From Patescibacteria group bacterium (GTDB lineage: Bacteria; Patescibacteriota; Minisyncoccia; Phycocordibacterales; VMEP01): a stretch of DNA of 38,691 nucleotides. The translations under genes were made by a program, and so were the position numbers. Shown here one piece after another: positions 151-29,066 of this stretch; the stretch's first letter is position 1, and every line of letters begins with the position of its first letter. The notes beneath the pieces were generated by a model. That model was not told where the DNA came from. It saw only the letters and a program-made list of their open reading frames with translations, and did no database searches. The DNA is taken from NCBI GenBank assembly GCA_038065675.1, contig JBBTQM010000025.1, forward strand, positions 1 to 38,691. Reading direction: 5' to 3'.

Positions 151-221
151 GCGGGATTGGTTTAGTGGCAGAATGCGACCTTCCCAAGGTTGAGACACGA
201 GTTCGATTCTCGTATCCCGCA
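151..221 (+). tRNA. tRNA-Gly (anticodon CCC)
   Basis: 7-bp acceptor stem GCGGGAT/ATCCCGC. Anticodon stem CGACC/GGTTG with loop TTCCCAA. T-arm ACGAG-TTCGATT-CTCGT. Discriminator A; no encoded CCA. Confidence 0.8.
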
Positions 222-223
222 TC

Positions 224-255
224 AAATGAAATACCCACTAGTGGGTATTTCATTT
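224..255. repeat. Perfect 32-nt palindrome immediately 3' of tRNA-Gly (aaatgaaatacccactagtgggtatttcattt); possible processing or terminator hairpin
   Basis: Exact inverted repeat centred on ACTAGT, read directly from the sequence. Confidence 0.7.
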
Positions 256-357
256 GAATTGCTGGGAGAATACGTAGTATTCGAGAGAATCGAAAGACGG
301 AGGCGCCTGGCGCCGAGTCGGGGTTGCGCAAAAATCAAGTATGATTTTATGCGTGAC

Positions 358-379
358 CGATTCTCGTATCCCGCATCAG
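358..379 (+). repeat. Direct duplicate of the last ~21 nt of tRNA-Gly (cgattctcgtatcccgcatca); att-like scar
   Basis: Identical to positions 203-224, i.e. the tRNA-Gly 3' end plus flank, repeated 137 bp downstream. Confidence 0.65.
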
Positions 380-2576: not shown

Positions 2577-3269
2577 TTAATATGCTGAACTCATCCTTTT
2601 AATTTTTTCGAAAATAAGGAGAAAAATAACCGCGACTACCCAGACGAAACCGAAGACGGTAAAAATATCGATATCTGTTCCCTTTATTATAAAAAAATTA
2701 AAGAGCGTATGCAAGAGAATGGCTGTCGCTATGCCGGCGAAAAGATATAGCTTGCGCGAAAACCATCCGCGATAAAAAGAAATCGCCATAGCTATACCGA
2801 TTGAAGAACTGGCGATGACGTGAAGAAGCGATGCCCCGATGAAGCGCATGTTTTGCGTGGCGAGCATGTCGGCAAGACCGCTTTTTTGGGCGGTGTTCAT
2901 GAGAAAAAGCGCGTTTTCCAGGCCGGCAAAGCCCAGAGCAACGGTAATCATGTAAATGACGTAATCAATAGGTTCATCAAGAAATTTTGTTTTGAGGGCG
3001 ATTAGCAAGGCGGCGCCGAATTTAACAAGCTCCTCGATTGCCGCCCACGCGATAATTACCGGAACTCCGGCCGGGAGATTCGCCAAAGCCAGTTTTTCAA
3101 GAGGGAAAACCAAGGCAACACCGGCCATTCCGGCAAGGAAAGATAAAATTATAAGCCCGCGCGGTTCAGGATGGGCGCGGTCTTCTTTGAGCCAAAACCA
3201 AAGCCAGAGAATGGAGGGAATAATTCCTCCGGCTAGGGCTATGGATATTGTTTGGGTGTTGGCTTCCAC
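2577..3269 (-). CDS. PrsW/CPBP-like intramembrane protease family protein
   Basis: 230 aa with multiple TM helices. Motifs EELVK (EExxK) and HTLFN (HxxxN) are typical of the PrsW/CAAX-protease superfamily. Confidence 0.55.
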   Translation of the reverse strand: MEANTQTISIALAGGIIPSILWLWFWLKEDRAHPEPRGLIILSFLAGMAGVALVFPLEKLALANLPAGVPVIIAWAAIEELVKFGAALLIALKTKFLDEPIDYVIYMITVALGFAGLENALFLMNTAQKSGLADMLATQNMRFIGASLLHVIASSSIGIAMAISFYRGWFSRKLYLFAGIATAILLHTLFNFFIIKGTDIDIFTVFGFVWVVAVIFLLIFEKIKRMSSAY

Positions 3270-7620: not shown

Positions 7621-8181
7621 TTACTTTTCAAATTTTCCTATTACCCACTCAAACTCGGTTTGCCAGTCCCTAGTCGGCGGACATGACCAACCGGGGCTTC
7701 CGGGGTAAGTTCCGTTCGACGTTTCCATGCCGCGTACGCCGAGAACATAATAATTTCCGCGGGTGGTGGGACAACCGGAATTTCCGGCGGGGTAGAGATA
7801 GTACGCGTAGCCGCCGCAACCGCCGGTTGCTATCGGGTCGCTTGGGGTCCTTTGCATGAAATTAGCCGCCTCTATCGGCTGCATGAATAAATCGGAGCTT
7901 CCCGGCCCGCCGTTTCGCCCGCCGTCCCATCCTCCGCATATATCATCGCCGTCGGTATTGCTCGGATACTGGCCGTTTTTATCGTAGTAAAACTCGAGAG
8001 CTATTTGAAGCTGCTTCATGTCGGACAGGCGCTGTGCGTCCCTTGCTTTTTTCTTGGCCGTGTTTAAGCTCGCCAGAACAATACTTGAAATGAGGCTAGT
8101 TATGGCTATTACCACAAGAAGCTCTATTAAAGTAAATCCTCCATTTTTTGCCGTGCTATCCTTTTTGAGCTTATTGGGCAT
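7621..8181 (-). CDS. Type IV pilin / pseudopilin with prepilin N-terminal methylation motif
   Basis: N-terminus KNGGFTLIELLVVIAITSLI is a class III signal peptide (G|FTLIE). 186 aa. Confidence 0.85.
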   Translation of the reverse strand: MPNKLKKDSTAKNGGFTLIELLVVIAITSLISSIVLASLNTAKKKARDAQRLSDMKQLQIALEFYYDKNGQYPSNTDGDDICGGWDGGRNGGPGSSDLFMQPIEAANFMQRTPSDPIATGGCGGYAYYLYPAGNSGCPTTRGNYYVLGVRGMETSNGTYPGSPGWSCPPTRDWQTEFEWVIGKFEK

Positions 8182-8477
8182 TATATTACCGCCGGACGGA
8201 TGATTATACTTTGTTCGCTTACGGTGCCGAAAAAAATATAAAGCGAGACGATAATGGCAAGCGCCGAAAAGGAAACAAGGACGTAATTCGCTTGAGTTCC
8301 GGTTTTAACTAGACCACCGGAATACATGACGACCCATTGGACCATTTTTGGCGAATCTTCAATCGGCGAATGAATTTCCGTCTGGCGCGGTTCTTCGAAC
8401 GAGGGGCGCGACCTGGCGCCTCTCAGTGCATCGCTGAAATCGATAGGTTTGTTGTCGCCATTTGGCATTTCTGTCAT
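8181..8477 (-). CDS. Hypothetical small membrane protein upstream of and overlapping the pilin gene
   Basis: 98-aa ORF with a C-terminal TM helix. Stop overlaps the pilin start. No motif recognised. Confidence 0.35.
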   Translation of the reverse strand: MTEMPNGDNKPIDFSDALRGARSRPSFEEPRQTEIHSPIEDSPKMVQWVVMYSGGLVKTGTQANYVLVSFSALAIIVSLYIFFGTVSEQSIIIRPAVI

Positions 8478-8590
8478 TATACTCCAGCGCCCGATAACCG
8501 ATAAGATAAACCGTCCGTTGTTTGACCTCGCCTCTCTTAATGATATTATTTAATGGCATAGACAATATTTAATAAAATAACAGCAAAAAA

Positions 8591-9547
8591 TTGATAATGA
8601 GCAAAAAATTGATAAAATCGGGAATTTTGGGGGTTTTACTATTGCCTTTCTTCGCTTTTGGCCAAACGGCGCTCCCAAGCGCAGGGCTTACTCCGGAGAG
8701 CAATCTTTATTTCTTCGACAGGCTGGGGGAGACTATCCGCGAACTTTTGACCTTCAGCAAAGAGGGAAAAGCGCGGCTTGAAATTTCTTTCGCCGCCGAG
8801 CGCATTGCCGAAATAAAAGTCGTTCTTGAAGAAAAAGGAGTGTCCGCGCCCGGTCTTGGGGTTGCGCAGGCGCGCCTAAGCGAGCACCTTACGGCCGCAT
8901 CTTCAATCATCAGCAAGAAAAAGGCGGCGGGGGAAGACGTAAGTTCCCTTTCGGGCGACCTTGATGACGAGCTTGAGGACCAAAAAGATGCCCTGGAAAA
9001 AGTTTTTGAAGATAAAAAGCGCGCTCTTGAAAGGAAAGAGGAAGATTTGACTAAAAAATTAAGCGCCGCCAGAAAAGCAGGGGACACGGTGCAGGTTACC
9101 GCCCTTCTTTCCGAGATTGCCGCAGTTAAGGCGGAGAAAAAGAATTTTGAGGGAGACAAAGAAGAGCAGAAAAAAGAATTTGAAAAAGCCAAAAAGAATA
9201 TAGAAAAAGAGGTAAACAAAAAAGAAAGAGCCGAAAAGGCGATTGCGGAAGCGGAAAAGGAAAAACAGGAGGCGATAAGCGAGGCATCTAAAAAGGGAAT
9301 TGTCCTTGCCGCGGATGCGTTCGCGAAATTTGACAGATTATTGGCGCAAGCGAAAGAGCTTTTCGCAAGGGAAAATTACCAGGGAGCGAAACAGCTGGCG
9401 GAGCAGGCGGAGGATTCAATTGAGGAAGAAGACGAAGATGAGACGGAAGATAATGACGAGGGCGACGCGGAAGACGACGACAAAGATGATGATGGCGAAA
9501 AAGACGATTTGGACAAAGCTCTGGACGAAATTGATAATAGGGATTAA
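8591..9547 (+). CDS. Secreted coiled-coil protein, DUF5667-like N-terminal motif, acidic C-terminal tail
   Basis: Signal peptide (LLLPFFAFGQTA). LTPESNLYFFDRLGE resembles the DUF5667 signature. Long KE-rich coiled coil. C-terminal D/E-rich tail. Confidence 0.5.
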   Translation: MIMSKKLIKSGILGVLLLPFFAFGQTALPSAGLTPESNLYFFDRLGETIRELLTFSKEGKARLEISFAAERIAEIKVVLEEKGVSAPGLGVAQARLSEHLTAASSIISKKKAAGEDVSSLSGDLDDELEDQKDALEKVFEDKKRALERKEEDLTKKLSAARKAGDTVQVTALLSEIAAVKAEKKNFEGDKEEQKKEFEKAKKNIEKEVNKKERAEKAIAEAEKEKQEAISEASKKGIVLAADAFAKFDRLLAQAKELFARENYQGAKQLAEQAEDSIEEEDEDETEDNDEGDAEDDDKDDDGEKDDLDKALDEIDNRD

Positions 9548-9575
9548 CCGATAATGTAATCTCCCAAAAATCACC

Positions 9576-9602
9576 CGACAAAGCGGGTGATTTTTGATTT
9601 AA
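9576..9602 (+). terminator. Rho-independent terminator (aaaatcacccg-acaaa-gcgggtgattttt)
   Basis: Perfect hairpin plus T-run just after the 8591-9547 stop. Confidence 0.7.
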
Positions 9603-9618
9603 CTTTTTGACGGTGTAT

Positions 9619-9656
9619 TTTAAAAATAGCTCGAACTGTATTCCCTCGCCGCGCAC
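9619..9656 (+). repeat. 38-bp direct repeat, copy A (ttaaaaatagctcgaactgtattccctcgccgcgcaca)
   Basis: Identical copy at 10599-10636. Flanking ~100 bp is also homologous with indels, including tttggcggcaaattct at 9797-9812 and 10697-10712. Confidence 0.8.
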
Positions 9657-9754
9657 AGCGCGGCTCGGAATGGGCGGGCGGGCAAAATGAATTAAAAAGC
9701 CGAGAGCATTAACAATTTCAAGTTTTTATTGAGTTAAGTATAACTCAATTCAGT

Positions 9755-9794
9755 AGATTTTTCAATTAAAAAGAATTGAAAAATCTACTGGCTT
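9755..9794. repeat. Perfect 17-bp inverted repeat with 6-nt spacer (cagtagatttttcaatt aaaaag aattgaaaaatctactg)
   Basis: Read directly from the sequence. Lies inside the duplicated junction segment upstream of the GC-rich cassette. Confidence 0.7.
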
Positions 9795-9827
9795 TGGCGG
9801 CAAATTCTCGCTCTTTGAATTTATAAA

Positions 9828-9880
9828 AACAAAAAACCTCGCACTCGACGAAGCACGAGGCTTTCTGTCGGTGCGAGGCG
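9828..9880 (-). terminator. Minus-strand terminator for the 9888-10412 gene
   Basis: The reverse complement gives cctcgcac...gtgcgagg hairpins followed by tttttt. Confidence 0.5.
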
Positions 9881-9887
9881 TGGCCGT

Positions 9888-10412
9888 TCAGGCCGGTTCG
9901 AGAGATGGGTACAGCCCGGGCTTTTTCAGATCGATCTGCTCGAGCTCCTCGCGTGTGGCAACGACGAGTGCGGCTTGCCGCGAGTAGTTCTTCTTGGAGA
10001 GCCAGAACGTGTAGCGCAACGGCATACCTTCGAGAATGAGCCCCGGGCGAGTGACCTGGGAACGGTCCCAGCCACCGAACATCCCGTCCGAATTGAACGG
10101 GTCGTCGGTACGAGTCGGATCGAAGTCGCCGTAGTGGATGCTGAAGCTCAGCTCACTTCCCATCACATGGAGAATCTGGTCGAGGTGGGTCGTGCCGTTG
10201 CAGCTCTCCATGCTACCGACACCGTGTCCGGCAGCACTGATCTCGTCAGCGGTGTACCCTTCGCGATCTGCCACGAGTGAGAGACAGACTTCTTTCGTCA
10301 GCTCCTCGGACGACTCGATGAGGAATGCCAGCACTCGCTTTGAGAGTTCGGTTCCGTTCTTGGCATTGAAGATCATGTACCTCAACGCCGATATCTGCTT
10401 GGATGTAAACAT
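9888..10412 (-). CDS. Hypothetical protein; markedly GC-rich, likely horizontally acquired single-gene cassette
   Basis: 174-aa ORF with GC far above surrounding DNA. Own terminator. Bracketed by 38-bp direct repeats and a duplicated fragment of the neighbouring HIT gene 3' end. Confidence 0.55.
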   Translation of the reverse strand: MFTSKQISALRYMIFNAKNGTELSKRVLAFLIESSEELTKEVCLSLVADREGYTADEISAAGHGVGSMESCNGTTHLDQILHVMGSELSFSIHYGDFDPTRTDDPFNSDGMFGGWDRSQVTRPGLILEGMPLRYTFWLSKKNYSRQAALVVATREELEQIDLKKPGLYPSLEPA

Positions 10413-10598
10413 CTGAAGACCTCCCTTTCAATGTGCTATTTAACCAAGACACCATGTCCCAGTTTCATCGAATATCGCACGTCTAACTAAAAAGGTCAAG
10501 AAGCGGCATTTAGCCGCTTCTTGGAAAAAAAATTGATGAAAAAATTTCTTTTGCCCTTACAAGATATGGTTCGAGCAGACGTTTTTGGCGGAGATATA

Positions 10599-10636
10599 TT
10601 AAAAATAGCTCGAACTGTATTCCCTCGCCGCGCACA
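10599..10636 (+). repeat. 38-bp direct repeat, copy B
   Basis: Identical to 9619-9656. Confidence 0.8.
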
Positions 10637-10679
10637 CTGGCAATTTTAAGTTTTTAGCGGGTAAAGCCCGCTAGCGAAA

Positions 10680-11207
10680 TCATAACTGATTTTGTTCTTT
10701 GGCGGCAAATTCTTTCTGAAAATACTTTTTCATTTTTTCCATTGCTTCATCCACTTTTTTCAAATTTTCTGGCGTCTTCATGTGCTCTCGGGCATACTCC
10801 ATAATCGGCCTAACTGATTGGATTTTTCTTCCGAATTTTTCCATAAGCCAATCATGGCGAGGAAACATCCAAATATGAAAGTGGTGCGAGGTGTCTTCCT
10901 CTTGTATTAGATAAATAACTTGAACATTGCACGCGTGTCTCATCGTCTGCCGTAAACGGCACAAAAATTCTATGAAATCAGTTCTCTCGTCTGCCGTAAA
11001 TTCATCTACGCTTTGCAAATGCCGCTTGGAAGCGAGAATAACAAAGCCAGGGATAGGGATTTCATAATCTTGGTGTGCGTCAAAATATTGCGTTGATGCG
11101 ATAGAACCGCCTGGACTTTCTACTTCGCCTTTTTGAATAGCACAACCAAGGCAACCGAGCTGCTTCTTTTTTCCTTTGATATCAATAATTTCTTTTTTCT
11201 CGTCCAT
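10680..11207 (-). CDS. HIT-family (histidine triad) hydrolase
   Basis: CLGCAIQKGE...PGFVILASKRH...IQEEDTSHHFHIWMFPR parallels the HIT pattern (C..C..I..GE...P.H.LViPk.H...HLHLHviPR). Start chosen at the internal Met to avoid overlap with the upstream gene. Confidence 0.7.
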   Translation of the reverse strand: MDEKKEIIDIKGKKKQLGCLGCAIQKGEVESPGGSIASTQYFDAHQDYEIPIPGFVILASKRHLQSVDEFTADERTDFIEFLCRLRQTMRHACNVQVIYLIQEEDTSHHFHIWMFPRHDWLMEKFGRKIQSVRPIMEYAREHMKTPENLKKVDEAMEKMKKYFQKEFAAKEQNQL

Positions 11208-11208
11208 A

Positions 11209-11616
11209 TTATTTTTTCGTTTTGATGATAAGTTCTTTATACCCTGTACTTTCGTCAAACTCCCTACCAAATTCCAAATCCTCTATTTCACCAATAGCAA
11301 TTTCGGCGGTTACGCCGACTATGGAACCATCTTTGAGATGGCCGCCAAAAGTTTTTCCGTCTTCGTCCGAAAGGCAAACGTGAATATGGCTATTACCCGT
11401 TTCAACCGTGCCGACAAGCGATACAATTTCAAAACTTCCTTCCCACGTTTTTATTACCCTTGCGTTTGCCATTCGCAAAATTGCTTTCGTGAGATTACCT
11501 ACGCAAGTAAGAATTATGCCCGCGCGAATGTTGTGCTCACGAACATACTTGTCAATTTCCTCTCTAAAATTTTGGCCCGGACGAAGCCGGAAAACGTGCG
11601 TTTTCATAAAATTCAT
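11209..11616 (-). CDS. PPC/DUF296-domain protein (predicted DNA-binding protein)
   Basis: FEIVSLVGTV....HIHVCLSDEDGKTFGGHLKDGSIVGVTAEIAI matches the PCC-domain consensus (fEIlSlsGt...HlH.sls...G...GGHL..G..V..T.EVvi). Confidence 0.7.
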   Translation of the reverse strand: MNFMKTHVFRLRPGQNFREEIDKYVREHNIRAGIILTCVGNLTKAILRMANARVIKTWEGSFEIVSLVGTVETGNSHIHVCLSDEDGKTFGGHLKDGSIVGVTAEIAIGEIEDLEFGREFDESTGYKELIIKTKK

Positions 11617-11645
11617 CTCAACAATTTTTCAATTTCCTATAACTG

Positions 11646-11708
11646 GCGGAGATGGGAGTCTGCCTGCCGCCTGCCTGTGCGTACACGCAGACAGGGCAGG
11701 CAGGGATT
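11646..11708. repeat. Copy of the tRNA-Ser 3' end core (cggagatggga), followed by a GC-rich CCTGCC/GGCAGG hairpin
   Basis: The 11-mer cggagatggga at 11648-11658 is identical to the 3' end of tRNA-Ser (13879-13889) and to 13722-13732. Confidence 0.5.
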
Positions 11709-11770
11709 CGGTCACGCATAAAATTCTACTGTCTACTGAATTTTTGCGCGACCCCGAGTCGCGCCGCCGC

Positions 11771-11855
11771 GCTCCGTCTTTCGAATCCTCCATCGCCGAC
11801 CACGACGCTTTTCCAAAATACCCATTCAGGATATTTTGAAAAATCGTAACGGAGA
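11771..11855 (+). repeat. 85-bp direct repeat, copy 1
   Basis: 83/85 identical to 13643-13727, covering the core ttcgaatcctccatcgccgaccacgacgcttttccaaaatacccattcaggatattttgaaaaatcgtaacggaga. Confidence 0.85.
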
Positions 11856-11957
11856 GATTATAACCTTTGCGCGAACTTTTTTCGAGGGGCGATGACCCGC
11901 CCCGCCGCGCGTACCACTTTGATGTCAAAGGAATTTAAATCATGGTAAAATAGCAAG

Positions 11958-13484
11958 ATGAAATACAAAAAAGGTTTTGTTGCTAATCTGCTAATTTTAG
12001 TAGTTTCGGGTATAGTAGTTTTAAGTGCAGGTTTCTCCTTTCTATATTATCAGAGTAAAAAAGATTCTATACGCCAAGGAAAAGCTATTGACGAGTTAAT
12101 TGTAAAATTAAATACTGGACAAAAAATAGAAGAAAATCAGATCAATAAGACCAACGAGAACTTGGGTCGTACCCCAGTTTCACCAACAAAAATAATACCC
12201 ACCAATTCAGTTTCAAACTCACAGCAAGGAAAAGTTATTGACAAACCAGTTACAAATCAACCTGTACCAACACCGGTAAAGACTACAAATTTACAAAATC
12301 AGTCAATCACATTTCAGCTACAGAGTGAGTTTTTAAAGAATGAGCCCATAGCTCAACAAATAGCGTCAGGGCAATTGAAGCAATATGATATAAGAAAATA
12401 TAATTTCGTATTTCTATCCATAAATAATGCGAATAATGACGATTTCGCTTATCGTTTTATTAATGCAATAAAAATGACAGGACAAGTCGTAGGCTCGGTC
12501 TCGAGTCACATAAGTGGTCAGTATGTTTCAGAGGATCTGCTCAACAGGTTTCAGTTGTTTTGGGGTTTTTCTGCTTCTCCCTATATAGAGGCTCTTGTCC
12601 TAAAAAAAGTTGATTCTATTCTTGCATCTAGGGAAGCTGAAGAAAAAAATGTTGCTATAAGTTTCCCGCTCTATAAATACTTTATCGAGGCACCAAAAAA
12701 CCAAGAAAGTAAGACGCACATTGCTTATTTACTAGCGCAAACCTTCAGGGAACTTCCTAGTAGTCTAGTTGTATGGAGCGAACAAAATTTTAAGAACTAT
12801 CTCTCACGACAAAGGACAACTGCTTTTTTAGACGATGGTTATGCTAATAATTATAAATTTTGTGAAATTTTTATATATGAAACCATAGGAGATATGTGCA
12901 CAGTGACAACAGCTTCCGAGAAGGTTGTTGATGATTTTATGACAGCAGATGTTAATCTTCATGAGTATGCACATTATCTTGATAGAAATTTACATTCTAG
13001 AAATCCAAACACCTCTCAGGGATTAATTGATACGACCGAATTTTATAGTATCAGTTACGACATCAATCAGAGAGATTTAAGACCAGGAATATGGCCATCG
13101 TATAAATTAAGAAATCCAAATAACAAGAGAAATGAGTTTGTAAGCATATATGCGATGGGGTGGGGTACCGATGACTATGGATACAAAAGCTCGGGTGAGG
13201 ATTTTGCTGAATCATTTGGAATGTACGTAACCCAAGGAAAAGCGTTTAGGGCGTTAACGATAAATAATTCAGTCCTAAAACAAAAATACGACTGGTTAAA
13301 ACAAAATGTTTTTGGTAACGTGGAATATCAGAGTGGTGCCTCAGACGCAATCGAACATACCAAAAATTCTTTTGATGCAATAACAGTTGCAACGGGGGTA
13401 TTTAATGTAAATGGTATTACAGAATCATATCCTAATTTTGTATGGAACTATCAATTTCTGAATGGCTCAATGGTTACAAAATAA
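11958..13484 (+). CDS. Membrane-anchored, secreted HExxH zinc-metallopeptidase-like protein; very AT-rich
   Basis: 508 aa. N-terminal TM/signal anchor. Low-complexity Q/N/T/P linker. HEYAH motif (NLHEYAHYLD). Downstream acidic GEDFAESFGMYV. Confidence 0.55.
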   Translation: MKYKKGFVANLLILVVSGIVVLSAGFSFLYYQSKKDSIRQGKAIDELIVKLNTGQKIEENQINKTNENLGRTPVSPTKIIPTNSVSNSQQGKVIDKPVTNQPVPTPVKTTNLQNQSITFQLQSEFLKNEPIAQQIASGQLKQYDIRKYNFVFLSINNANNDDFAYRFINAIKMTGQVVGSVSSHISGQYVSEDLLNRFQLFWGFSASPYIEALVLKKVDSILASREAEEKNVAISFPLYKYFIEAPKNQESKTHIAYLLAQTFRELPSSLVVWSEQNFKNYLSRQRTTAFLDDGYANNYKFCEIFIYETIGDMCTVTTASEKVVDDFMTADVNLHEYAHYLDRNLHSRNPNTSQGLIDTTEFYSISYDINQRDLRPGIWPSYKLRNPNNKRNEFVSIYAMGWGTDDYGYKSSGEDFAESFGMYVTQGKAFRALTINNSVLKQKYDWLKQNVFGNVEYQSGASDAIEHTKNSFDAITVATGVFNVNGITESYPNFVWNYQFLNGSMVTK

Positions 13485-13642
13485 ATTATCTTAATTTATT
13501 CTAGAATAACTGCATATACCCCATAAGACGGTCAGATTATGTACCGTATAATTATTTATTTTTAATGCGCTAGCGCCAGACAATAAACTTTGCGCGCGTC
13601 CCCTGAAAAAAATTCTAAAAAGGAAAGGGAAATTTCTGCTCG

Positions 13643-13744
13643 GCTCCGCCCTTCGAATCCTCCATCGCCGACCACGACGCTTTTCCAAAATACCCATTCA
13701 GGATATTTTGAAAAATCGTAACGGAGATGGGAGGATTCGAAGCT
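13643..13744 (+). repeat. 85-bp direct repeat, copy 2, extended by a 17-nt copy of the tRNA-Ser 3' end (att-like)
   Basis: Copy 2 runs on into ggagatgggaggattcgaa, which matches the tRNA-Ser 3' end (ggagatgggaggatttgaa) with one mismatch. A third, ~65% identical copy lies at 13808-13878, abutting the tRNA. Confidence 0.8.
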
Positions 13745-13878
13745 TACAGCTTCAGTACAGGTTTTTGATATTTTGCTTCGCAATGCTCGCAAAATATCTA
13801 AAGAACCTTTTCGAATCCTCCCCATTCGCGTAATGATAAATTGCGCAGAAGCCATTCAGGCTTCCTTTCAAATCATTA

Positions 13879-13965
13879 CGGAGATGGGAGGATTTGAACC
13901 TCCGATAAGGTTACCCCTATGCCACATTTCGAGTGTGGTGCCTTCAACCACTCAGCCACATCTCC
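13879..13965 (-). tRNA. tRNA-Ser (anticodon CGA), long variable arm
   Basis: Reverse complement GGAGATGTGGCTGAGTGGTTGAAGGCACCACACTCGAAATGTGGCATAGGGGTAACCTTATCGGAGGTTCAAATCCTCCCATCTCCG. Anticodon loop CTCGAAA. Confidence 0.8.
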
Positions 13966-14167
13966 TCGTTTAACTCGTCGTTGCGGCTGAGTGCCTCCTC
14001 GGCACCCCTATGGCCTGCCTCGCGCGCCGGCATCGGCCATTTCCGCCTCAAGGCGAAATCGGGATGAAATATGAAGCAGTTCATATTTCATAGCCACATC
14101 TCCAATTTAATGCTTAAAATACTAGCATTTTGAGAAAAAAATGCTATATTTCTTACTATTCTTCTTG

Positions 14168-14239
14168 GCCCTATCGTCTAACGGTTAGGACATGAGCTTT
14201 TCAAGCTCAGAATCGGGGTTCGATTCCCCGTAGGGTCAT
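14168..14239 (+). tRNA. tRNA-Glu (anticodon TTC)
   Basis: Acceptor GGCCCTA/TAGGGTC. Anticodon stem TGAGC/GCTCA with loop TTTTCAA. T-arm CGGGG-TTCGATT-CCCCG. Confidence 0.8.
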
Positions 14240-14378
14240 ACGTCGCAGGAAAGCAGGCAAACTGCTTTGCCTGCGGGCGACGTATGAAGCCGCAGACATA
14301 TTTCGCTAGCAAGCGAAATGGCGAGGCGGGGTCGCGAGCACTTACGTTTTCTGGCGTGCAAGAAACGCCAGAAAACTT
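14240..14378 (+). other. Cluster of three consecutive perfect hairpins downstream of tRNA-Glu
   Basis: 14240-14286 is a nested palindrome (tacgtcgc...gcaggcaaa-ctgc-tttgcctgc...gcgacgta). 14301-14321 is atttcgct-agca-agcgaaat. 14345-14375 is gttttctggcgt-gcaagaa-acgccagaaaac. Confidence 0.6.
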
Positions 14379-14424
14379 AGTGACTTGTGACCAGATAAAT
14401 CAGCAGGCGAAGCCCACAAATTAA

Positions 14425-15012
14425 ATGACCACTGACAACCTAAAATTCGAGATTGGATTTTGGCATCCGTTCGGGGATCATGCGGACGAAAAAGCCGAAG
14501 ACATCATAAAAAGAAAACAACAGGAAATAAAAAAAACAGGGTGGACACTTTGGTCTTTCCAACATAGAACCAAAGAAACTTTAGAACGATGGCTTAATGA
14601 AATAAAAGAAAAGGGGCCTTGTAATGTTTTGGTATTTTGCTCCAACGGCAAAGGAAGTAACACCAAGGGGACTCCACGGCACTGTAATTACTATCTTCCA
14701 ATCGGAGAAACAAATCCTAAAGCCATTCCAATAACAATAAAAGTCCCGCATCCCATGAAAAAAGGAACAGCGGGGTCTGCTTTTATCGTTAAAAATATTA
14801 AATACGCGCCTGCCCATGAAGAAATACAGGTGGAATGGTTTTATAGTGGTCAATCAAGGTGGCAAAAAGATAGAAGTTCTACTAGGGGAGAGCACCTTAT
14901 ACGACGGGACAGTTCGGGTAAACCCTTAAGGGAGTTCCGCGCTGTGCTTGAGCTTCAATCTCCTTATCTCGCCGAAGTTGGCGAAACAGAAATAGAAGAT
15001 CGTGACCAATAA
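14425..15012 (+). CDS. Hypothetical protein (no recognisable domain)
   Basis: 195-aa ORF in the accessory region between the tRNA cluster and the KAP NTPase. Confidence 0.5.
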   Translation: MTTDNLKFEIGFWHPFGDHADEKAEDIIKRKQQEIKKTGWTLWSFQHRTKETLERWLNEIKEKGPCNVLVFCSNGKGSNTKGTPRHCNYYLPIGETNPKAIPITIKVPHPMKKGTAGSAFIVKNIKYAPAHEEIQVEWFYSGQSRWQKDRSSTRGEHLIRRDSSGKPLREFRAVLELQSPYLAEVGETEIEDRDQ

Positions 15013-15069
15013 GATTAGAAGGCAAAGCCTACCTTGTGTCAATTTTTGGGAGGGTGTAAAGTTTGGGGT

Positions 15070-15594
15070 ATGAGACTTGTATTTCTCCTCTCAATTTTGT
15101 TTTTAAGCTTTCCCCCTTTGCTTTCGTATGCTCATCCAGGGCGTACCGACGTCTCCGGCTGTCATACATGCAGAACAAATTGTCCGAATTGGGGATTGGA
15201 TTACAGCGAATACCATTGCCATAACGCCAAGGCCTTGCCGCAGCCAATGGAACCAATTCGAAGTCATTATGGAGAAAGTGGAACTGGAACGACTGAACCA
15301 TGGCCGGAATATAAAAATACTCCAGTAGCACCGAAAAAACCTGTTGTTGCCCCAGTTCCCTCGATGACACTTTCCAGCATCACTTACTCTCTAGCAAAGG
15401 GCATGGAGAACAATCAGGTCATAAGGTTACAGCAGATTCTCGCCCGTTATCCTGAAATATACCCAGAGGGTTCAATAACGGGTTACTTTGGTCCTGCAAC
15501 CGAAAGAGCCGTCAAGCGTCTTCAAAAGAAATATAACCTGGAGCAAGTCGGTTCTACGGGGCCAAAAACTAGAGTATTATTAAATTCTTTGTGA
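15070..15594 (+). CDS. Secreted protein with N-terminal Cys/His-rich motif and C-terminal peptidoglycan-binding (PG_binding_1-like) domain
   Basis: Signal peptide MRLVFLLSILFLSFPPLLSYA. HPGRTDVSGCHTCRTNC...YHCH metal-binding-like motif. C-terminus LQQILARYPEIYPEGSITGYFGPATERAVKRLQKKYNLEQVGSTGPKT resembles PG_binding_1. Start set at the internal Met. Confidence 0.55.
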   Translation: MRLVFLLSILFLSFPPLLSYAHPGRTDVSGCHTCRTNCPNWGLDYSEYHCHNAKALPQPMEPIRSHYGESGTGTTEPWPEYKNTPVAPKKPVVAPVPSMTLSSITYSLAKGMENNQVIRLQQILARYPEIYPEGSITGYFGPATERAVKRLQKKYNLEQVGSTGPKTRVLLNSL

Positions 15595-15626
15595 CCACGT
15601 AAATTGAGTCGGAGTAAAATACCTGT

Positions 15627-17318
15627 GTGTCTATAAAACTAGTCAAGGAAGAAATAGGGCGATTTATTTCAGGTACGGAATCAGAAATTTTTTGCATTAG
15701 TGGTAAGTGGGGTGTAGGTAAGACCTACAGTTGGAACTATTTCTTAAAGAGTGCAAAAGATGCTGAAAGGATAGGTTTAAAGCGATATGCCTACGTATCT
15801 CTTTTTGGCCTAAAGTCTCTTAACGAACTGAAGTACGCATTATACGAAGCGACCAAACCAGTTGAAAAAATTGGCGAAGATCCAGAATGGGAAGATTTTG
15901 AATTAAAAAACACGGGCGAGACTTTTCTGAGGCGGACACGTTTAGTGATCTCTCGACTAAGTCAGTTGCCTATTGTTCAAGGCTATATAGGGCTGACTGA
16001 AAGCATTCTTTTTTACTTTGTCGGGAAGCAGCTGATTTGTATAGACGACCTAGAAAGAGCTGGGAATGGTTTGGATGTTATGGATGTTTTTGGTCTAATT
16101 TCTTTTTTGAAGGAGCAGCGCCATTGCAAGGTTGTCCTACTTCTCAACAAAGACGAGATAGATAAAGAACAGAGGGCTGTTTTTGACAAGCAATTTGAGA
16201 AAGTTATAGATGAGGACCTTCAATTTAGTCCAACCCCACAAGAAGCGGCTGATATAGTTTTTCCACAACCTGAGGGAATAAAGAAAGACCTTCACCGCCA
16301 CTGTTTAACTCTGGGGGTAATCAATATTCGCGTAATAAAAAAGATAGAGAAAATCGCCTTTAGGTTAGAGGAGATTCTTAAAGATAAATACGCAGATTTG
16401 CTATATCAAGCCATTCACTCATCAACTCTTTTTGCTTGGTCAAAATATCAAAAAGATAAAGAACCACCACCTTTTGACTTTCTAACAAATATAAGTCGGC
16501 TTCTTGGGCTTTTTCTCGATAAAGAGAAGGCAACCGCCGACGACCAAAGATGGAAAGCCCTAATGGCAGAATATAAATTTGGGAATGTAGATGATTTCGA
16601 TTTAGTTATTTATGACGCTGTTCAAAGTGGTATTTTCGACAAAGATGTTTTACTCGCAGCTGCTGAAAAACAGCGCCAGGGAGTCACGAAAAATAAGCAA
16701 GAACAGGTAATTCATGACACTTGGGATCTATATCACGGCTCTTTCGACGATAATGAAAGTGGCGTAATGGATCAAATTTTTAAAGTATCTTTAGAAAATA
16801 TTAAAGTGATTAGCCCATCTAACTTGGAGGGCACCATCAGTACCTTAAAGGAATTTGACCGAAAAAAAGAAGCGGCGGAACTCATTAAGAAATATATAGA
16901 TGAACGCGGGTCCGAAAAAGAACTTTTCGATCTTAAAAATGATCATTTTAGTCGGAATATTAAAGACCCCGACATTCTCCGTGAGTTCGGAAAGAAGAGA
17001 GCAGAATTCGTAGACAATAGGAACCCCGCAGATGTTCTAGAAACCATGGTGATGAACCGCGGGTGGAGTCTGGAAGACGAGGAACTTATTGATAAGTTAT
17101 CGACGGACGACTTTTATAAGATCTTCAAGGGCGAAAAAGGAGATCGAATGCATCGGGTAATTAGAGGCGCTTTGCAGTTAAATCGAAAAGAGTCAGATGC
17201 CAGCAAAGAACTAGGCTCTATTTCCGAAAGAGCCGTCAAGGCACTAGAGAAAATTGCTGGAGAAAGTCGACTGAACGCACGGAGGGTCGCGGCACAAGGA
17301 ATCAAGCTAAAAGACTAG
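15627..17318 (+). CDS. KAP-family P-loop NTPase
   Basis: N-terminal FCISGKWGVGKTYSWNYFL Walker A in the characteristic KAP context (GeWGsGKT). Walker B-like LICIDDLER. 563 aa. GTG start. Lower GC than core genes. Confidence 0.7.
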   Translation: MSIKLVKEEIGRFISGTESEIFCISGKWGVGKTYSWNYFLKSAKDAERIGLKRYAYVSLFGLKSLNELKYALYEATKPVEKIGEDPEWEDFELKNTGETFLRRTRLVISRLSQLPIVQGYIGLTESILFYFVGKQLICIDDLERAGNGLDVMDVFGLISFLKEQRHCKVVLLLNKDEIDKEQRAVFDKQFEKVIDEDLQFSPTPQEAADIVFPQPEGIKKDLHRHCLTLGVINIRVIKKIEKIAFRLEEILKDKYADLLYQAIHSSTLFAWSKYQKDKEPPPFDFLTNISRLLGLFLDKEKATADDQRWKALMAEYKFGNVDDFDLVIYDAVQSGIFDKDVLLAAAEKQRQGVTKNKQEQVIHDTWDLYHGSFDDNESGVMDQIFKVSLENIKVISPSNLEGTISTLKEFDRKKEAAELIKKYIDERGSEKELFDLKNDHFSRNIKDPDILREFGKKRAEFVDNRNPADVLETMVMNRGWSLEDEELIDKLSTDDFYKIFKGEKGDRMHRVIRGALQLNRKESDASKELGSISERAVKALEKIAGESRLNARRVAAQGIKLKD

Positions 17319-17327
17319 CTGGCCAAA

Positions 17328-17423
17328 ATGGTGCCGAGCGCCCGCACTTATGTCATTATGAGGATACTCGGCGCATTTTTAATGGCTATCGGCTTTCTCG
17401 CCATTACCGGCGTAATAGAATGA
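17328..17423 (+). CDS. Possible 31-aa membrane micro-protein (MVPSARTYVIMRILGAFLMAIGFLAITGVIE)
   Basis: Short ORF below the track cutoff. Single hydrophobic helix. Overlaps the next small ORF by ATGA. Confidence 0.25.
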   Translation: MVPSARTYVIMRILGAFLMAIGFLAITGVIE

Positions 17424-17569
17424 AATTCAATTTACCCAACCTCACCATCTTCCTCCTCTTCTTTGGCCTCGCCCTTATTGAAGCAATTCAAAAAGAAAAC
17501 TGGCTTGAAGCGGCCATTTTCCTCATTCTCGGAATAATGTTTCTCCGCGCCGATTTACTTAAAAAATAA
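17420..17569 (+). CDS. Possible 49-aa two-helix membrane micro-protein (MKFNLPNLTIFLLFFGLALIEAIQKENWLEAAIFLILGIMFLRADLLKK)
   Basis: Short ORF read from the sequence. Hydrophobic. Confidence 0.3.
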   Translation: MKFNLPNLTIFLLFFGLALIEAIQKENWLEAAIFLILGIMFLRADLLKK

Positions 17570-17588
17570 ATTATTTAATAATAAAACC

Positions 17589-18227
17589 ATGTCTAAAAAA
17601 ACATTAGGGGAGATTGAAGAAGAATTTGTACAATCGGCGCGCGTTTCGGGCCAAAAAACCAACAATCCGGTCGTGGTGGCCATAGTTGGCGTAACCGGCG
17701 TGGGCAACAGCACAATCGCCAGCGCTTTGGAGAAAAAACTTGGCTGGAGTGTTATTGAAAACAACAAAATCAGAGTTGCCCTCCGCGAGAAAGGGAGTGG
17801 TTTTACTCCGGAAACCACGGCTAAAATCGGGTATGCCATGCTCGGCAAAATTCTCCGCGCCGGCGGCAACGCCATTCTTGACTCTGACTTTGCCGACAAG
17901 AACAAGCGAAAAAAATTGGAGCGTTTCGCGAAAAATTTTCGGGCGCGGGTTATTTACCTGCGCTTGGTCTGCGACCGCGACACGATGATTGAGCGCATAA
18001 TACACGCCCGCTATAACTCTAAAACCGATATTTTCAAAAACGCCGTTATTGCCGTAAGGGAACACTCGCGCCGCCTGCCGTGGCATTATCGTTGGACCGA
18101 AAAAGGCGGCGGCCAGTTTTTGCTTAAAAAACTACCCGTAAAGTTCCTGGCGGAAATAGACACAACCGACCCGAGAAAATGGCCGAAAAAGCTGGGCGTA
18201 GTAGCTGAAAAACTGAAGAAAAATTAA
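17589..18227 (+). CDS. P-loop kinase-like ATP-binding protein (AAA_33/zeta-toxin-like fold)
   Basis: Walker A VAIVGVTGVGNSTIA near the N-terminus. 212 aa. Confidence 0.55.
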   Translation: MSKKTLGEIEEEFVQSARVSGQKTNNPVVVAIVGVTGVGNSTIASALEKKLGWSVIENNKIRVALREKGSGFTPETTAKIGYAMLGKILRAGGNAILDSDFADKNKRKKLERFAKNFRARVIYLRLVCDRDTMIERIIHARYNSKTDIFKNAVIAVREHSRRLPWHYRWTEKGGGQFLLKKLPVKFLAEIDTTDPRKWPKKLGVVAEKLKKN

Positions 18228-19526: not shown

Positions 19527-19649
19527 AAGTTTTTAGTTTTTCCTGCCCGCGTGTACGCGCAGGCGGGCAGTTTTTGGTTTTTAGGTAATCGGCAATAAGC
19601 ATGAATCTTACTATATAAACTACTCACTAAAAACTACCAACTACTCATT

Positions 19650-28403: not shown

Positions 28404-29066
28404 ATGATCATCACTTACTTCGGCAAGGAATTTTTCAAAGTTCAAGTCGGCGACACCGTTTTGGCTTTTAATCCGATCAGCAAGGATTCCAAATTGAAAA
28501 CTTCGCGCTTCGGCGCCGACATCGCGCTTATTACCGTAAACCACGAAGATTACAACGGCGCCGACCAGGTTTCTTTCGGCGAAAAAAATCCGCTGATTCT
28601 TTCCGGCCCGGGAGAATACGAAACAAAAGGAATTTTCATAAGAGGAATTCCCTCGGAATCTTCGGCGGGCGACGGCCTGCCTGCGCCGGGGGTGCCACGG
28701 CAGGCAGGCAAAAAAATAAACACCATTTACACCCTTTCGGTGGACAAAATGAACATTTGTTTTTTGGGAGCGCTTTCTTCAAAAGCCCTGCCGGCGGAGT
28801 CGCGCGAAGCCATAGACGGCGTGGATATTCTTTTTGTGCCTATTGGCGGCGAGGGAGTCCTTAGTCCGGCGGACGCTTACAGTATCGCGGTATCCATAGA
28901 GCCGAAAGTTATTATTCCCATGGATTATGGAGATGAGGCGGTGCTTAAAAAATTCCTGAAAGAAGGCGGCGCGGAAAAGGCGGAGCCGCTTGATAAATTC
29001 ACCGTAAAACAAAAAGACATAGAAGGGATGGAGGGAGAAATAATCGTCCTTACTCCGTCGGCGTGA
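28404..29066 (+). CDS. MBL-fold metal-dependent hydrolase-like protein
   Basis: 220 aa. Beta-lactamase-superfamily-like pattern (ADIALITVNHEDYNGAD ... DILFVPIGGEG ... IIPMDYGD). The HxHxDH motif is degenerate. Confidence 0.45.
   Translation: MIITYFGKEFFKVQVGDTVLAFNPISKDSKLKTSRFGADIALITVNHEDYNGADQVSFGEKNPLILSGPGEYETKGIFIRGIPSESSAGDGLPAPGVPRQAGKKINTIYTLSVDKMNICFLGALSSKALPAESREAIDGVDILFVPIGGEGVLSPADAYSIAVSIEPKVIIPMDYGDEAVLKKFLKEGGAEKAEPLDKFTVKQKDIEGMEGEIIVLTPSA

Follow-up and report, generated by a model that had tools for sequence, protein, structure and literature searches.

A probable array of modular tRNA-trailer elements beside a Patescibacteria tRNA-Ser(CGA) gene, with a peptidase-like gene in its middle unit

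The stretch of DNA analysed here (hereafter, the window) comprises the 38,691 nucleotides (nt) of contig JBBTQM010000025.1 from a Patescibacteria group bacterium (assembly GCA_038065675.1; Minisyncoccia), in which the tRNA-Ser(CGA) gene is followed on its 3′ side by an array of repeats that holds a single AT-rich gene for a metallopeptidase-like protein. An earlier note had read this arrangement as repeated site-specific integration into the 3′ end of the tRNA gene, with regeneration of the attachment (att) site, and had supposed it to be a decayed or satellite-like islet. We describe the array, the family of structured repeats to which its units can be assigned, and the reading that we favour, in which these units are non-coding ‘tRNA-trailer elements’. 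Leftward from the tRNA gene, the array consists of unit C, a copy of the tRNA 3′ end, unit B (which holds the gene cassette and a remnant), a 6-nt piece of the tRNA end, unit A and an outermost tRNA copy, beyond which lies the native flank with a gene for a PCC-domain protein (11209–11616). In ascending coordinates, the features are as follows:

11647–11711, minus strand: outermost copy of the tRNA-Ser 3′ segment, split by a palindrome (CGAATCC at 11705–11711 and TCCCATCTCCG at 11647–11657)
11712–11849, minus strand: unit A, 138 nt, with trailer hairpin, antisense segment and intact type-1 module (covariance model R1, 79.1 bits; R2, 79.4 bits, at 11703–11789)
11771–11855, no strand assigned: copy A of the 85-nt repeat, composed like copy B; its last 6 nt are the tRNA-end piece CGGAGA (11850–11855)
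11856–11914, minus strand: GC-rich module-like remnant between cassette and repeat A (repeat family D8; family assignment tentative)
11915–13565, plus strand: AT-rich gene cassette, with promoter-like site (11922–11951), open reading frame (ORF; 11958–13484) and weak hairpin (13528–13547) followed by a T-rich run
13566–13642, minus strand: degenerate rest of the putative unit B module (CGAGCAG...GGGGACGCGCGCAAAGTTTATTGTCT...), the decayed module as a whole being read from 13650 to 13566
13643–13727, no strand assigned: 85-nt repeat, copy B (83/85 against copy A)
13722–13744, minus strand: displaced copy of the tRNA-Ser 3′ end, GCTTCGAATCCTCCCATCTCCG, at the boundary of units C and B (20/22 identity to the tRNA tail; repeat families D3 and D6)
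13745–13878, minus strand: unit C, 134 nt, with type-2 module
13879–13965, minus strand: intact tRNA-Ser(CGA) (ARAGORN; Rfam tRNA model, 59.7 bits), its 3′ end at 13879 and CCA not encoded

These features are real and lie far beyond chance. The 12-mer CGGAGATGGGAG, for one, has three occurrences in the window and none in 100 shuffles. The 85-bp duplication reported by the earlier note holds at 83 of 85 positions (11771–11855 and 13643–13727), with an exact part of 76 nt (11780–11855 = 13652–13727) after which the following base differs (G at 11856, T at 13728). The reported copy of the tRNA end at 13722–13744 was likewise recovered, the last 22 nt of tRNA-Ser(CGA) being found again at 13722–13743 with two mismatches, and so was the third copy of the repeat said to abut the tRNA at ~65% identity: located at about 13801–13884, it is 62% identical to repeat B, with common blocks, against a mean of 48% and a maximum of 58% in shuffles. 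The 11-mer noted at 11648–11658 proved to be part of a longer, 18-nt copy that runs from C56 in the T-loop to the tRNA 3′ end and is interrupted by a 46-nt GC-rich palindrome (11659–11704), which leaves the pairing of this copy to the antisense segment intact.

Read in tRNA sense, unit C begins with a trailer hairpin (approximately 13832–13878), followed by a segment antisense to the T-loop and T-stem of the tRNA (13809–13831) and by a type-2 module (13745–13808). Copy B of the 85-nt repeat, read in the same sense, starts with the last 6 nt of the tRNA and the trailer hairpin CAAAATATCC-TGAAT-GGGTATTTTG, and continues with the sub-piece GAAAAGCGTCGTGGTC, the antisense segment GGAGGATTCGAA and the opening 12 nt of the module, GGGCGGAGC. 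On the plus strand, a diverged copy of the tRNA 3′ segment in inverted orientation opens each 85-nt unit (TTCGAATCCTCC...). The repeat reaches 6 nt into the tRNA end on one side and 12 nt into the module on the other, offset from the unit boundaries; it is thus no core site but a stretch that units A and B have in common, made up of trailer hairpin, antisense segment and the beginning of the module. In unit A, the minimum free energy fold gives the three-way junction, which the antisense/sense pair closes (z = −7.7). The decayed module of unit B matched neither covariance model (R1 or R2); the remnant at 11856–11914 has CGCGCAAAG(G/T)TTAT in common with 13578–13596 (16/19).

Two further tRNA genes of the window are occupied, so that the family is found at three of the eight window tRNAs:

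151–378, plus strand: tRNA-Gly(CCC) locus, with tRNA at 151–221, a unit of 133 nt whose type-1 module is intact and, at 358–378, a 21-nt stretch that repeats the tRNA 3′ end exactly
14166–14399, plus strand: tRNA-Glu(TTC) locus, with tRNA at 14166–14239, a long hairpin at 14241–14284 and a variant type-1 module at 14279–14399

The left flank of the tRNA-Ser array (11705–11850) is homologous to the reverse complement of the 133-nt tRNA-Gly insert (225–357), and the spacing from tRNA-Ser to its first duplicate (134 nt) compares with 133 nt at tRNA-Gly, where the unit scores 79.7 bits (R1) and 80.7 bits (R2; model match at 285–365) and folds with z = −8.1. The trailer units of tRNA-Ser and tRNA-Gly belong to one family. 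The variant module after tRNA-Glu is weaker (R2, 27.4 bits, E = 4e-5), differs in the distal part of its last hairpin (a form seen also in L029, L033 and L039, L-numbers here and below denoting loci from other sequences) and has no duplicate of the tRNA end. The hairpin core AAAGCAGGCAAACTGCTTT that follows the window tRNA-Glu (14241–14399) also follows the tRNA-Glu element in L048.

The type-1 module, which measures approximately 65 nt, is a three-way junction backed by covariation. It is closed by a helix between the antisense segment and the distal tRNA copy, and contains a 3-bp helix (GNC/GN′C), an internal loop (GGAG / CGA), a 3–4-bp GC hairpin with the loop GACG, the strand GGG and a 15-bp hairpin (GTCGCGCAAAAATTC-AGCA-GAATTTT(A)TGCGTGAC). 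The 3-bp helix occurs as GCC/GGC (12), GGC/GCC (8), GAC/GTC (4) and TGC/GCG (2). In a gap-free alignment of 19 sequences, 92% of cells are paired, compared with 80% in shuffles and 29–46% when the partners are slid, and double-sided changes number 78 against 30; the invariance of the last hairpin is owed in part to the search pattern with which copies were found. Because the next tRNA 3′ copy pairs with the antisense segment, the module lies in the loop of a helix that resembles the acceptor/T-stem of a tRNA.

The type-2 module has a helix (GGTTCTTT/AAAAACC) around a hairpin, followed by TGTACTG and by a hairpin that has the loop TGTAA and a covarying stem; its motif GTACWGNNNCTGTAA was found in unit C and in L002, L033, L038, L040 and L044, every time in a tRNA trailer. 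Mosaics combine type-1 modules, type-2 modules, a piece beginning with GAAAAGCGT and an isolated 32-nt hairpin. The GAAAAGCGT..GGTC piece forms part of the 85-nt repeat and is met again in L040 and L033, and it is to this piece that the plus-strand ‘...GCCGACCA’ belongs, which we had considered, and rejected, as a CCA-ending tRNA fragment or as a complement, resembling a primer-binding site, of a mature tRNA; elsewhere, moreover, the partner of the antisense segment is the genomic trailer and not CCA. In L039 (4087–4250), the lone 32-nt terminal hairpin of type 1 lies between 15-nt direct repeats (GATTCCTCGTGCTAA), which suggests that this hairpin, with its GTGAC end, may duplicate as a unit of its own.

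The junction strands (AAA, GGG and none) and nested helices misfit the hammerhead, HDV-like, twister, hatchet and pistol ribozymes, the K-turn and retron non-coding RNA, for which Rfam was negative as well, and an integron attC site was rejected given that the repeat ends have no R″/R′ core (GTTRRRY) and no integrase was found in the window. A group I or other tRNA intron was rejected as the upstream tRNA is intact; the tRNA intron described previously (PMC13011429) lies in the anticodon loop, at position 35/36.

The distribution of the family was examined with a 22-base pattern from two window copies in one genome per species (185,579 species). This pattern gave 40 loci, 38 of them in Patescibacteria (Saccharibacteria, Nomura-, Kaiser-, Zambryski- and Peregrinibacteria, Paceibacterota and Minisyncoccia), and the two others look like chance matches. 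Most matches lie 10–150 nt downstream of a tRNA on the same strand. In 345 kb of the scanned loci, a covariance model recovered 60 copies (E < 2e-5), 32 of which lie within 400 nt downstream of a tRNA or transfer-messenger RNA (tmRNA) on the same strand. In tRNA sense, the architecture comprises the tRNA, a terminator-like hairpin, the antisense segment, AAA, the conserved module and a direct tRNA copy from C56. The antisense segment covers the T-loop, T-stem and often the acceptor strand of the local tRNA. In approximately 17 tRNA-adjacent copies, C56 is exactly the first position of the duplicate, and its other end lies 0 to +6 nt beyond that of the tRNA, the distal duplicate being 18–26 nt long (longer in tandem arrays; exact duplicates, 18–37 nt) and forming with the antisense segment a closing helix of 6–17 bp. 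One conserved module serves more than ten different tRNA species, and in L021 and L029 most of the tRNAs of the locus carry it.

Other stable-RNA genes are flanked in related ways. Modules follow tmRNA in L016 (535–870) and L022 (2960–3200), with an antisense segment complementary to the tmRNA 3′ end; in L016 this segment takes in the encoded CCA of the tmRNA, and two modules stand in tandem. In L013 (385–726), L024 (2129–2440) and L025 (2028–2398), a type-1 module lies beside 5S rRNA on the opposite strand, flanked by an apparent partial 5S duplicate (approximately the 3′ two-thirds), so that the 5S loci may follow the same logic of an intact gene with a displaced 3′ part as do the tRNAs, in another orientation. 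A copy in L019 lies after a protein gene, rplL, beyond its terminator. L013 also has a group I intron in its 23S rRNA gene (2921–3269; Nomurabacteria; Rfam Intron_gpI, 52 bits), in line with the introns already reported in rRNA and tRNA genes of Patescibacteria.

No protein family recurs beside the module in the 38 loci, loci of at most 8 kb having been covered, and a Pfam scan of the 29 larger ORFs of the window gave no recombinase, transposase or reverse transcriptase domain, in agreement with the earlier statement that no integrase is present there. The module pattern was absent from the viral contigs scanned, and the exact 32-nt core of the 85-nt repeat had no match in JGI metagenomes. Rfam 15 returned only tRNAs for the whole window at the gathering threshold and, at E up to 10, only a tRNA and microRNA noise for 140–420; a full-text literature search gave no description of such an element. 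The repeat family appears to be undescribed.

The gene in the middle of the array (ORF 11958–13484) encodes 508 amino acids. Its GC content of 0.349 and third-codon-position GC content (GC3) of 0.283, against a GC3 of 0.46–0.58 in housekeeping genes of the window, bear out its description as very AT-rich and make it compositionally foreign here; its homologues match the composition of hosts with lower GC. The product, described earlier as a membrane-anchored HExxH protein, has a hydrophobic N-terminus (residues 4–53 helical in the model), a peptidoglycan-binding-like domain and a putative HExxH zincin domain, in which H335, E336 and H339 of the HExxH motif are conserved together with a downstream acidic motif (E414, D415, F416, A417 and E418), these residues being invariant or nearly so in 33 sequences (H335, E336 and H339 invariant). 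The conserved motifs and the predicted fold point to a zinc peptidase resembling lethal factor and MtfA, and make ‘metallopeptidase-like’ a reasonable name; the closest known counterparts are zincins of the lethal-factor, MtfA (M90), PPEP and ‘Peptidase_Mx’ kinds. No Pfam metallopeptidase family exceeded its threshold for the product, the family profile found no match among PDB sequences and Foldseek nothing significant in the PDB. We see no support for the NCBI name ‘class I SAM-dependent methyltransferase’, the basis of which is a 73-residue Ubie match, the product having no Rossmann-fold methyltransferase domain by our assessment.

The 53 relatives of this protein are confined to Patescibacteria and DPANN archaea. 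Those within approximately 500 nt of a tRNA represent eight distinct contexts (Thr-CGT, Thr-TGT, Tyr, Ile, Lys, Ser-TGA, Ser-CGA and Arg), on the tRNA 3′ side in seven of the eight; at about 45 tRNAs per Mb, such proximity arises by chance in approximately 4–5% of cases. The 48 loci of relatives (224 kb) contained neither a type-1 module nor a tRNA-tail repeat, and because of this the gene does not resemble the cargo of a dedicated tRNA-integrating satellite. In L007 (5840–6046; also in L051), 3′ of tRNA-Thr(CGT) and facing the 3′ end of the peptidase homologue, there is a truncated tRNA-like sequence made up of an anticodon arm with CGT, a T-arm and an acceptor strand; after it comes a GC-rich palindrome of the sort present in the window. 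The window palindromes form a separate family (CCTGCC...GGCAGG, some with the loop GCGTGTACGC; 2015–2047, 11659–11704, 19544–19572 and 28673–28711), of which one copy follows tRNA-Phe and two resemble intrinsic terminators; the palindrome pattern CTGCCTGCC, with at most one mismatch, gave 18 matches against 5 expected. The surroundings of the array (8181–18227) are compositionally patchy (GC3 of 0.74 for ORF 9888–10412 and 0.36–0.40 for 10680–11616 and 14425–17318) and hold accessory-looking genes (a KAP-family NTPase-like gene at 15627–17318, a peptidoglycan-binding protein and unknowns), so that this part of the window looks like a variable zone of gene gain. We conclude that the flanks of tRNA genes are hotspots of gene gain in these genomes, and the cassette was probably captured inside the array by recombination.

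Taken together, we suggest as the most probable interpretation, held with some reserve, that the array consists of three tandem units (C, B and A) of a modular non-coding family specific to Patescibacteria, situated 3′ of tRNA-Ser(CGA), and that its middle unit holds a peptidase gene gained by horizontal transfer. A unit, in tRNA sense, comprises a tRNA copy (C56 to 3′ end), a trailer hairpin, an antisense segment and a structured module. Duplicative insertion, or a copying process, may have placed successive units at the T-loop/3′ end of the functional tRNA and, because new units would join there, the outermost copy (11647–11711) would be the oldest. The structure would act in single-stranded nucleic acid, most simply in the co-transcript with the tRNA, where the distal tRNA copy may stop the antisense segment from invading the tRNA, or else in single-stranded DNA. 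A recent duplication or gene conversion could have given units A and B their shared 85 nt, and the 1.65-kb AT-rich cassette would have entered the degenerate unit B by recombination, possibly as a 1,872-nt circle that integrated in Campbell fashion by way of the 85-nt homology, a step that the same repeats could reverse. The 85-nt repeats would then be the footprint of this recombination event and a possible means of losing the cassette again. Our preferred reading of the family as a whole is one of long-resident, proliferating repeats similar to repetitive extragenic palindromic (REP) sequences and bacterial interspersed mosaic elements (BIMEs).

Comparison of orthologous sites indicates turnover. 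At tRNA-Ser(CGA), where the relatives compared are all distant ones, a type-1 module is found in none of L002, L037, L044 and L014, once in L033 and here as a three-unit array with one intact module. L033 has in common with the window a pilin gene, tRNA-Ser-Glu-Val and a TsaD/aminoacyl-tRNA synthetase block; the interval from the pilin gene to tRNA-Ser, 5.7 kb long in the window, there holds one element and no peptidase gene. As regards the empty site that the earlier note had proposed to look for in relatives, L033 lacks the peptidase gene and keeps one unit, and no pair with identical flanks was seen. In L038 and L039, the tRNA-Thr genes and the first halves of the elements are identical and the later sub-modules differ, because of which we regard the arrays as mosaics that turn over at orthologous sites. 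The orthologous tRNA-Thr(GGT) genes of L017 (7085–7272), L026 (5060–5247) and L045 (3605–3838) are identical save for a complete swap of the 5-bp T-stem; between L017 and L026 the distal copy carries the same swap and the antisense segment follows it in part, with the trailer hairpin between them unchanged. Such tracking indicates concerted evolution or re-copying between tRNA and element. It requires that the target be copied when a unit is inserted, or else that gene conversion act together with compensatory selection.

Several observations weigh against the interpretation as inserted and captured units. In ‘class E’ copies, such as that after the window tRNA-Glu, the module follows the post-tRNA hairpin almost or entirely without a tRNA duplicate. 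The orthologous copies of L017, L026 and L045 are more alike than are paralogues within one genome, because of which most copies must be considered old, and subfamily signatures follow taxonomy; this likeness of orthologues fits old, vertically kept and possibly functional elements equally well as mobile ones. Each tRNA has an antisense segment of its own, a specificity for which no ordinary transposition mechanism accounts, and no empty/filled pair with identical flanks occurs among the loci compared. As for the gene, a homologue with 39% identity lies in L002 beside the same ftsZ-ftsA-ybeY-hisS block, a single gene separating it from ftsZ, so that the gene family may be old in this neighbourhood; and the placement of the cassette inside a unit is a reading of the nucleotide sequence, given that the module of unit B is too decayed for the models.

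Another explanation, which we consider possible but clearly less probable, is that the module is a conserved, non-mobile and functional part of stable-RNA transcription units, inherited vertically and expanded only by local tandem duplication, unequal crossing-over and gene conversion. It could serve in processing or termination or act as a decoy RNA, its closing helix imitating the acceptor/T-stem, with the tRNA-Ser array as a local expansion and the peptidase gene brought in by illegitimate recombination. Consistent with this notion, the module shares the strand of any nearby upstream tRNA, also follows tmRNA and stands (on the opposite strand) beside 5S rRNA; it covaries strongly; in some loci (L021 and L029) it is carried by most tRNAs; and orthologous copies are kept, with subfamily signatures that follow lineage and with antisense and distal copies that track the T-stem swap between L017 and L026. 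However, the presence of the module at orthologous tRNAs is patchy, there are decayed copies, mosaics and a copy after a protein gene (rplL, L019), the exact duplicates of 18–37 nt extend into trailer sequence that is free of constraint, and a 32-nt hairpin lies between 15-nt direct repeats in L039; taken together, these features have the look of insertions or duplications and not of a fixed functional arrangement.

A more speculative proposal, to which we give little credence at present, is that the type-1 and type-2 modules represent new classes of functional RNA for which the target-derived antisense/sense pair is a programmable address, and that, with no dedicated protein of the element’s own, home to tRNA, tmRNA and 5S genes at the T-loop/3′ end or are excised from there. 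If so, the module could be a ribozyme of small size or else a substrate of tRNA-processing enzymes, its excised form would be a small RNA similar to a tRNA minihelix, and the arrays would constitute a hitherto unseen kind of RNA-guided or RNA-templated genome element of the Candidate Phyla Radiation, with portable homology for gene capture.

Returning to the integration that the earlier note had proposed, we find it improbable that the array is an islet of a tyrosine or serine recombinase that integrated repeatedly at the tRNA-Ser 3′ end, its integrase lost or acting in trans and the gene carried as satellite cargo. The T-loop is a classic sublocation for tRNA-targeting integrases, and the tRNA 3′-end direct repeats do begin there; the gene is compositionally foreign, and its relatives lie 3′ of the tRNA in seven of eight tRNA-adjacent contexts. 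The stacking of insert-like units bounded by copies of the tRNA 3′ end stands, but the regeneration of att sites does not, as the 85-nt repeat is offset from the tRNA copy and from the unit boundaries. Nor do we retain the decayed or satellite-like islet: the units of approximately 135 nt share a structured module across many different tRNAs and occur phylum-wide, no integrase is found in the window, no recombinase or other recurrent protein gene is linked to the module in 38 loci, and the 48 loci of peptidase relatives have neither tRNA-tail repeats nor the module. That the array reflects ancient local tandem duplication only, or an assembly artefact, seems to us scarcely credible: 85-nt repeats could collapse or join chimerically and Logan unitigs do break at or near repeated sequence, yet the same architecture is found in 38 independent genomes and at two further window tRNAs, and the protein is on record in NCBI, ENA and Logan, in contigs of up to 247,637 nt.

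The Logan data touch the array in several ways. Contig L001 equals window 11826–13643 exactly, its left end falling within repeat A and its right end on the first base of repeat B; the repeat at the left end would have this effect in an assembly graph, and the ends do not distinguish a linear from a circular arrangement. The end at 13643 lies nine bases ahead of the exact repeat, and could reflect a strain variant at the junction. For unitigs L001, L049 and L050, from samples ERR3858116 and ERR3858118, the ends fall within repeats or modules, or within tRNA-Glu. Exact-protein look-ups for strain variants returned no record for the PCC-domain gene (two start codons) and ORF 9888–10412, and that of a 195-residue ORF returned only short unitigs, broken inside tRNA-Glu or its element.

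Patescibacteria have tiny genomes that are thought to be poor in mobile DNA, and little non-coding RNA is known from them. A structured element of approximately 65 nt that is conserved across many lineages of this group and that copies the tRNA 3′ segment in both orientations points to an unrecognized step in the processing of stable RNA, or to a new way in which small selfish elements home to tRNA genes without destroying them. It also suggests a mechanism by which single genes are gained at tRNA flanks without an integrase, with homology supplied by the repeated units, which would help to explain the variable regions of reduced genomes. In practice, the elements break assemblies, which is apparent from the unitig ends, and mimic att sites, such that island-prediction tools would misread them.

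Among its nearest analogues, the family recalls the REP sequences, BIMEs and REPINs of Proteobacteria (mobilized by RAYT, a Y1 transposase similar to that of IS200/IS605), which are likewise short and structured repeats, lie outside genes where transcription units have their 3′ ends, and are multi-copy, mosaic in their sub-motifs, largely vertical in inheritance and devoid of a gene of their own; the 35-nt terminal hairpin of type 1, with its fixed GTGAC end, is in itself REP-like. However, REPs do not copy their target, whereas the family is flanked by direct and inverted copies of the tRNA 3′ end with a junction at C56, and a REP is a single palindrome, whereas the module is a three-way junction. 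[quoted passage not shown] As to MITEs in general, the units (133–138 nt) are of fitting size, non-coding, multi-copy and non-autonomous, with no linked gene, but in place of terminal inverted repeats they have an inverted pair that is derived from the target and differs with each tRNA.

The array also shares tandem stacking, tRNA 3′ copies that start in the T-loop and an intact tRNA with tRNA-targeting integrative elements and with those of their derivatives that lack an integrase and are stacked by accretion, such as the cis-mobilizable elements that lie beside integrative and conjugative elements. In contrast to these, it has no integrase nearby, its units are of approximately 135 nt, their conservation is structural and not that of protein-binding arm sites, and a single module serves more than ten tRNA species, a range that no att core of specific sequence can cover. 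The palindrome-associated transposable elements (PATEs), miniature derivatives of IS200/IS605, and the guide RNAs of TnpB and IscB offer a further parallel in their hairpin-rich ends and in a scaffold that is followed by a target-derived stretch (the guide after the right end); nevertheless, IS200/IS605 elements make no target duplication and recognize a target motif of 4–5 nt, whereas the family has no TnpA or TnpB nearby and no Rfam match to IS605-orfB or HEARO RNAs. The family differs from REP/BIME, BOX and MITE-like repeats and from arrays formed by att-site accretion, from each in its defining features.

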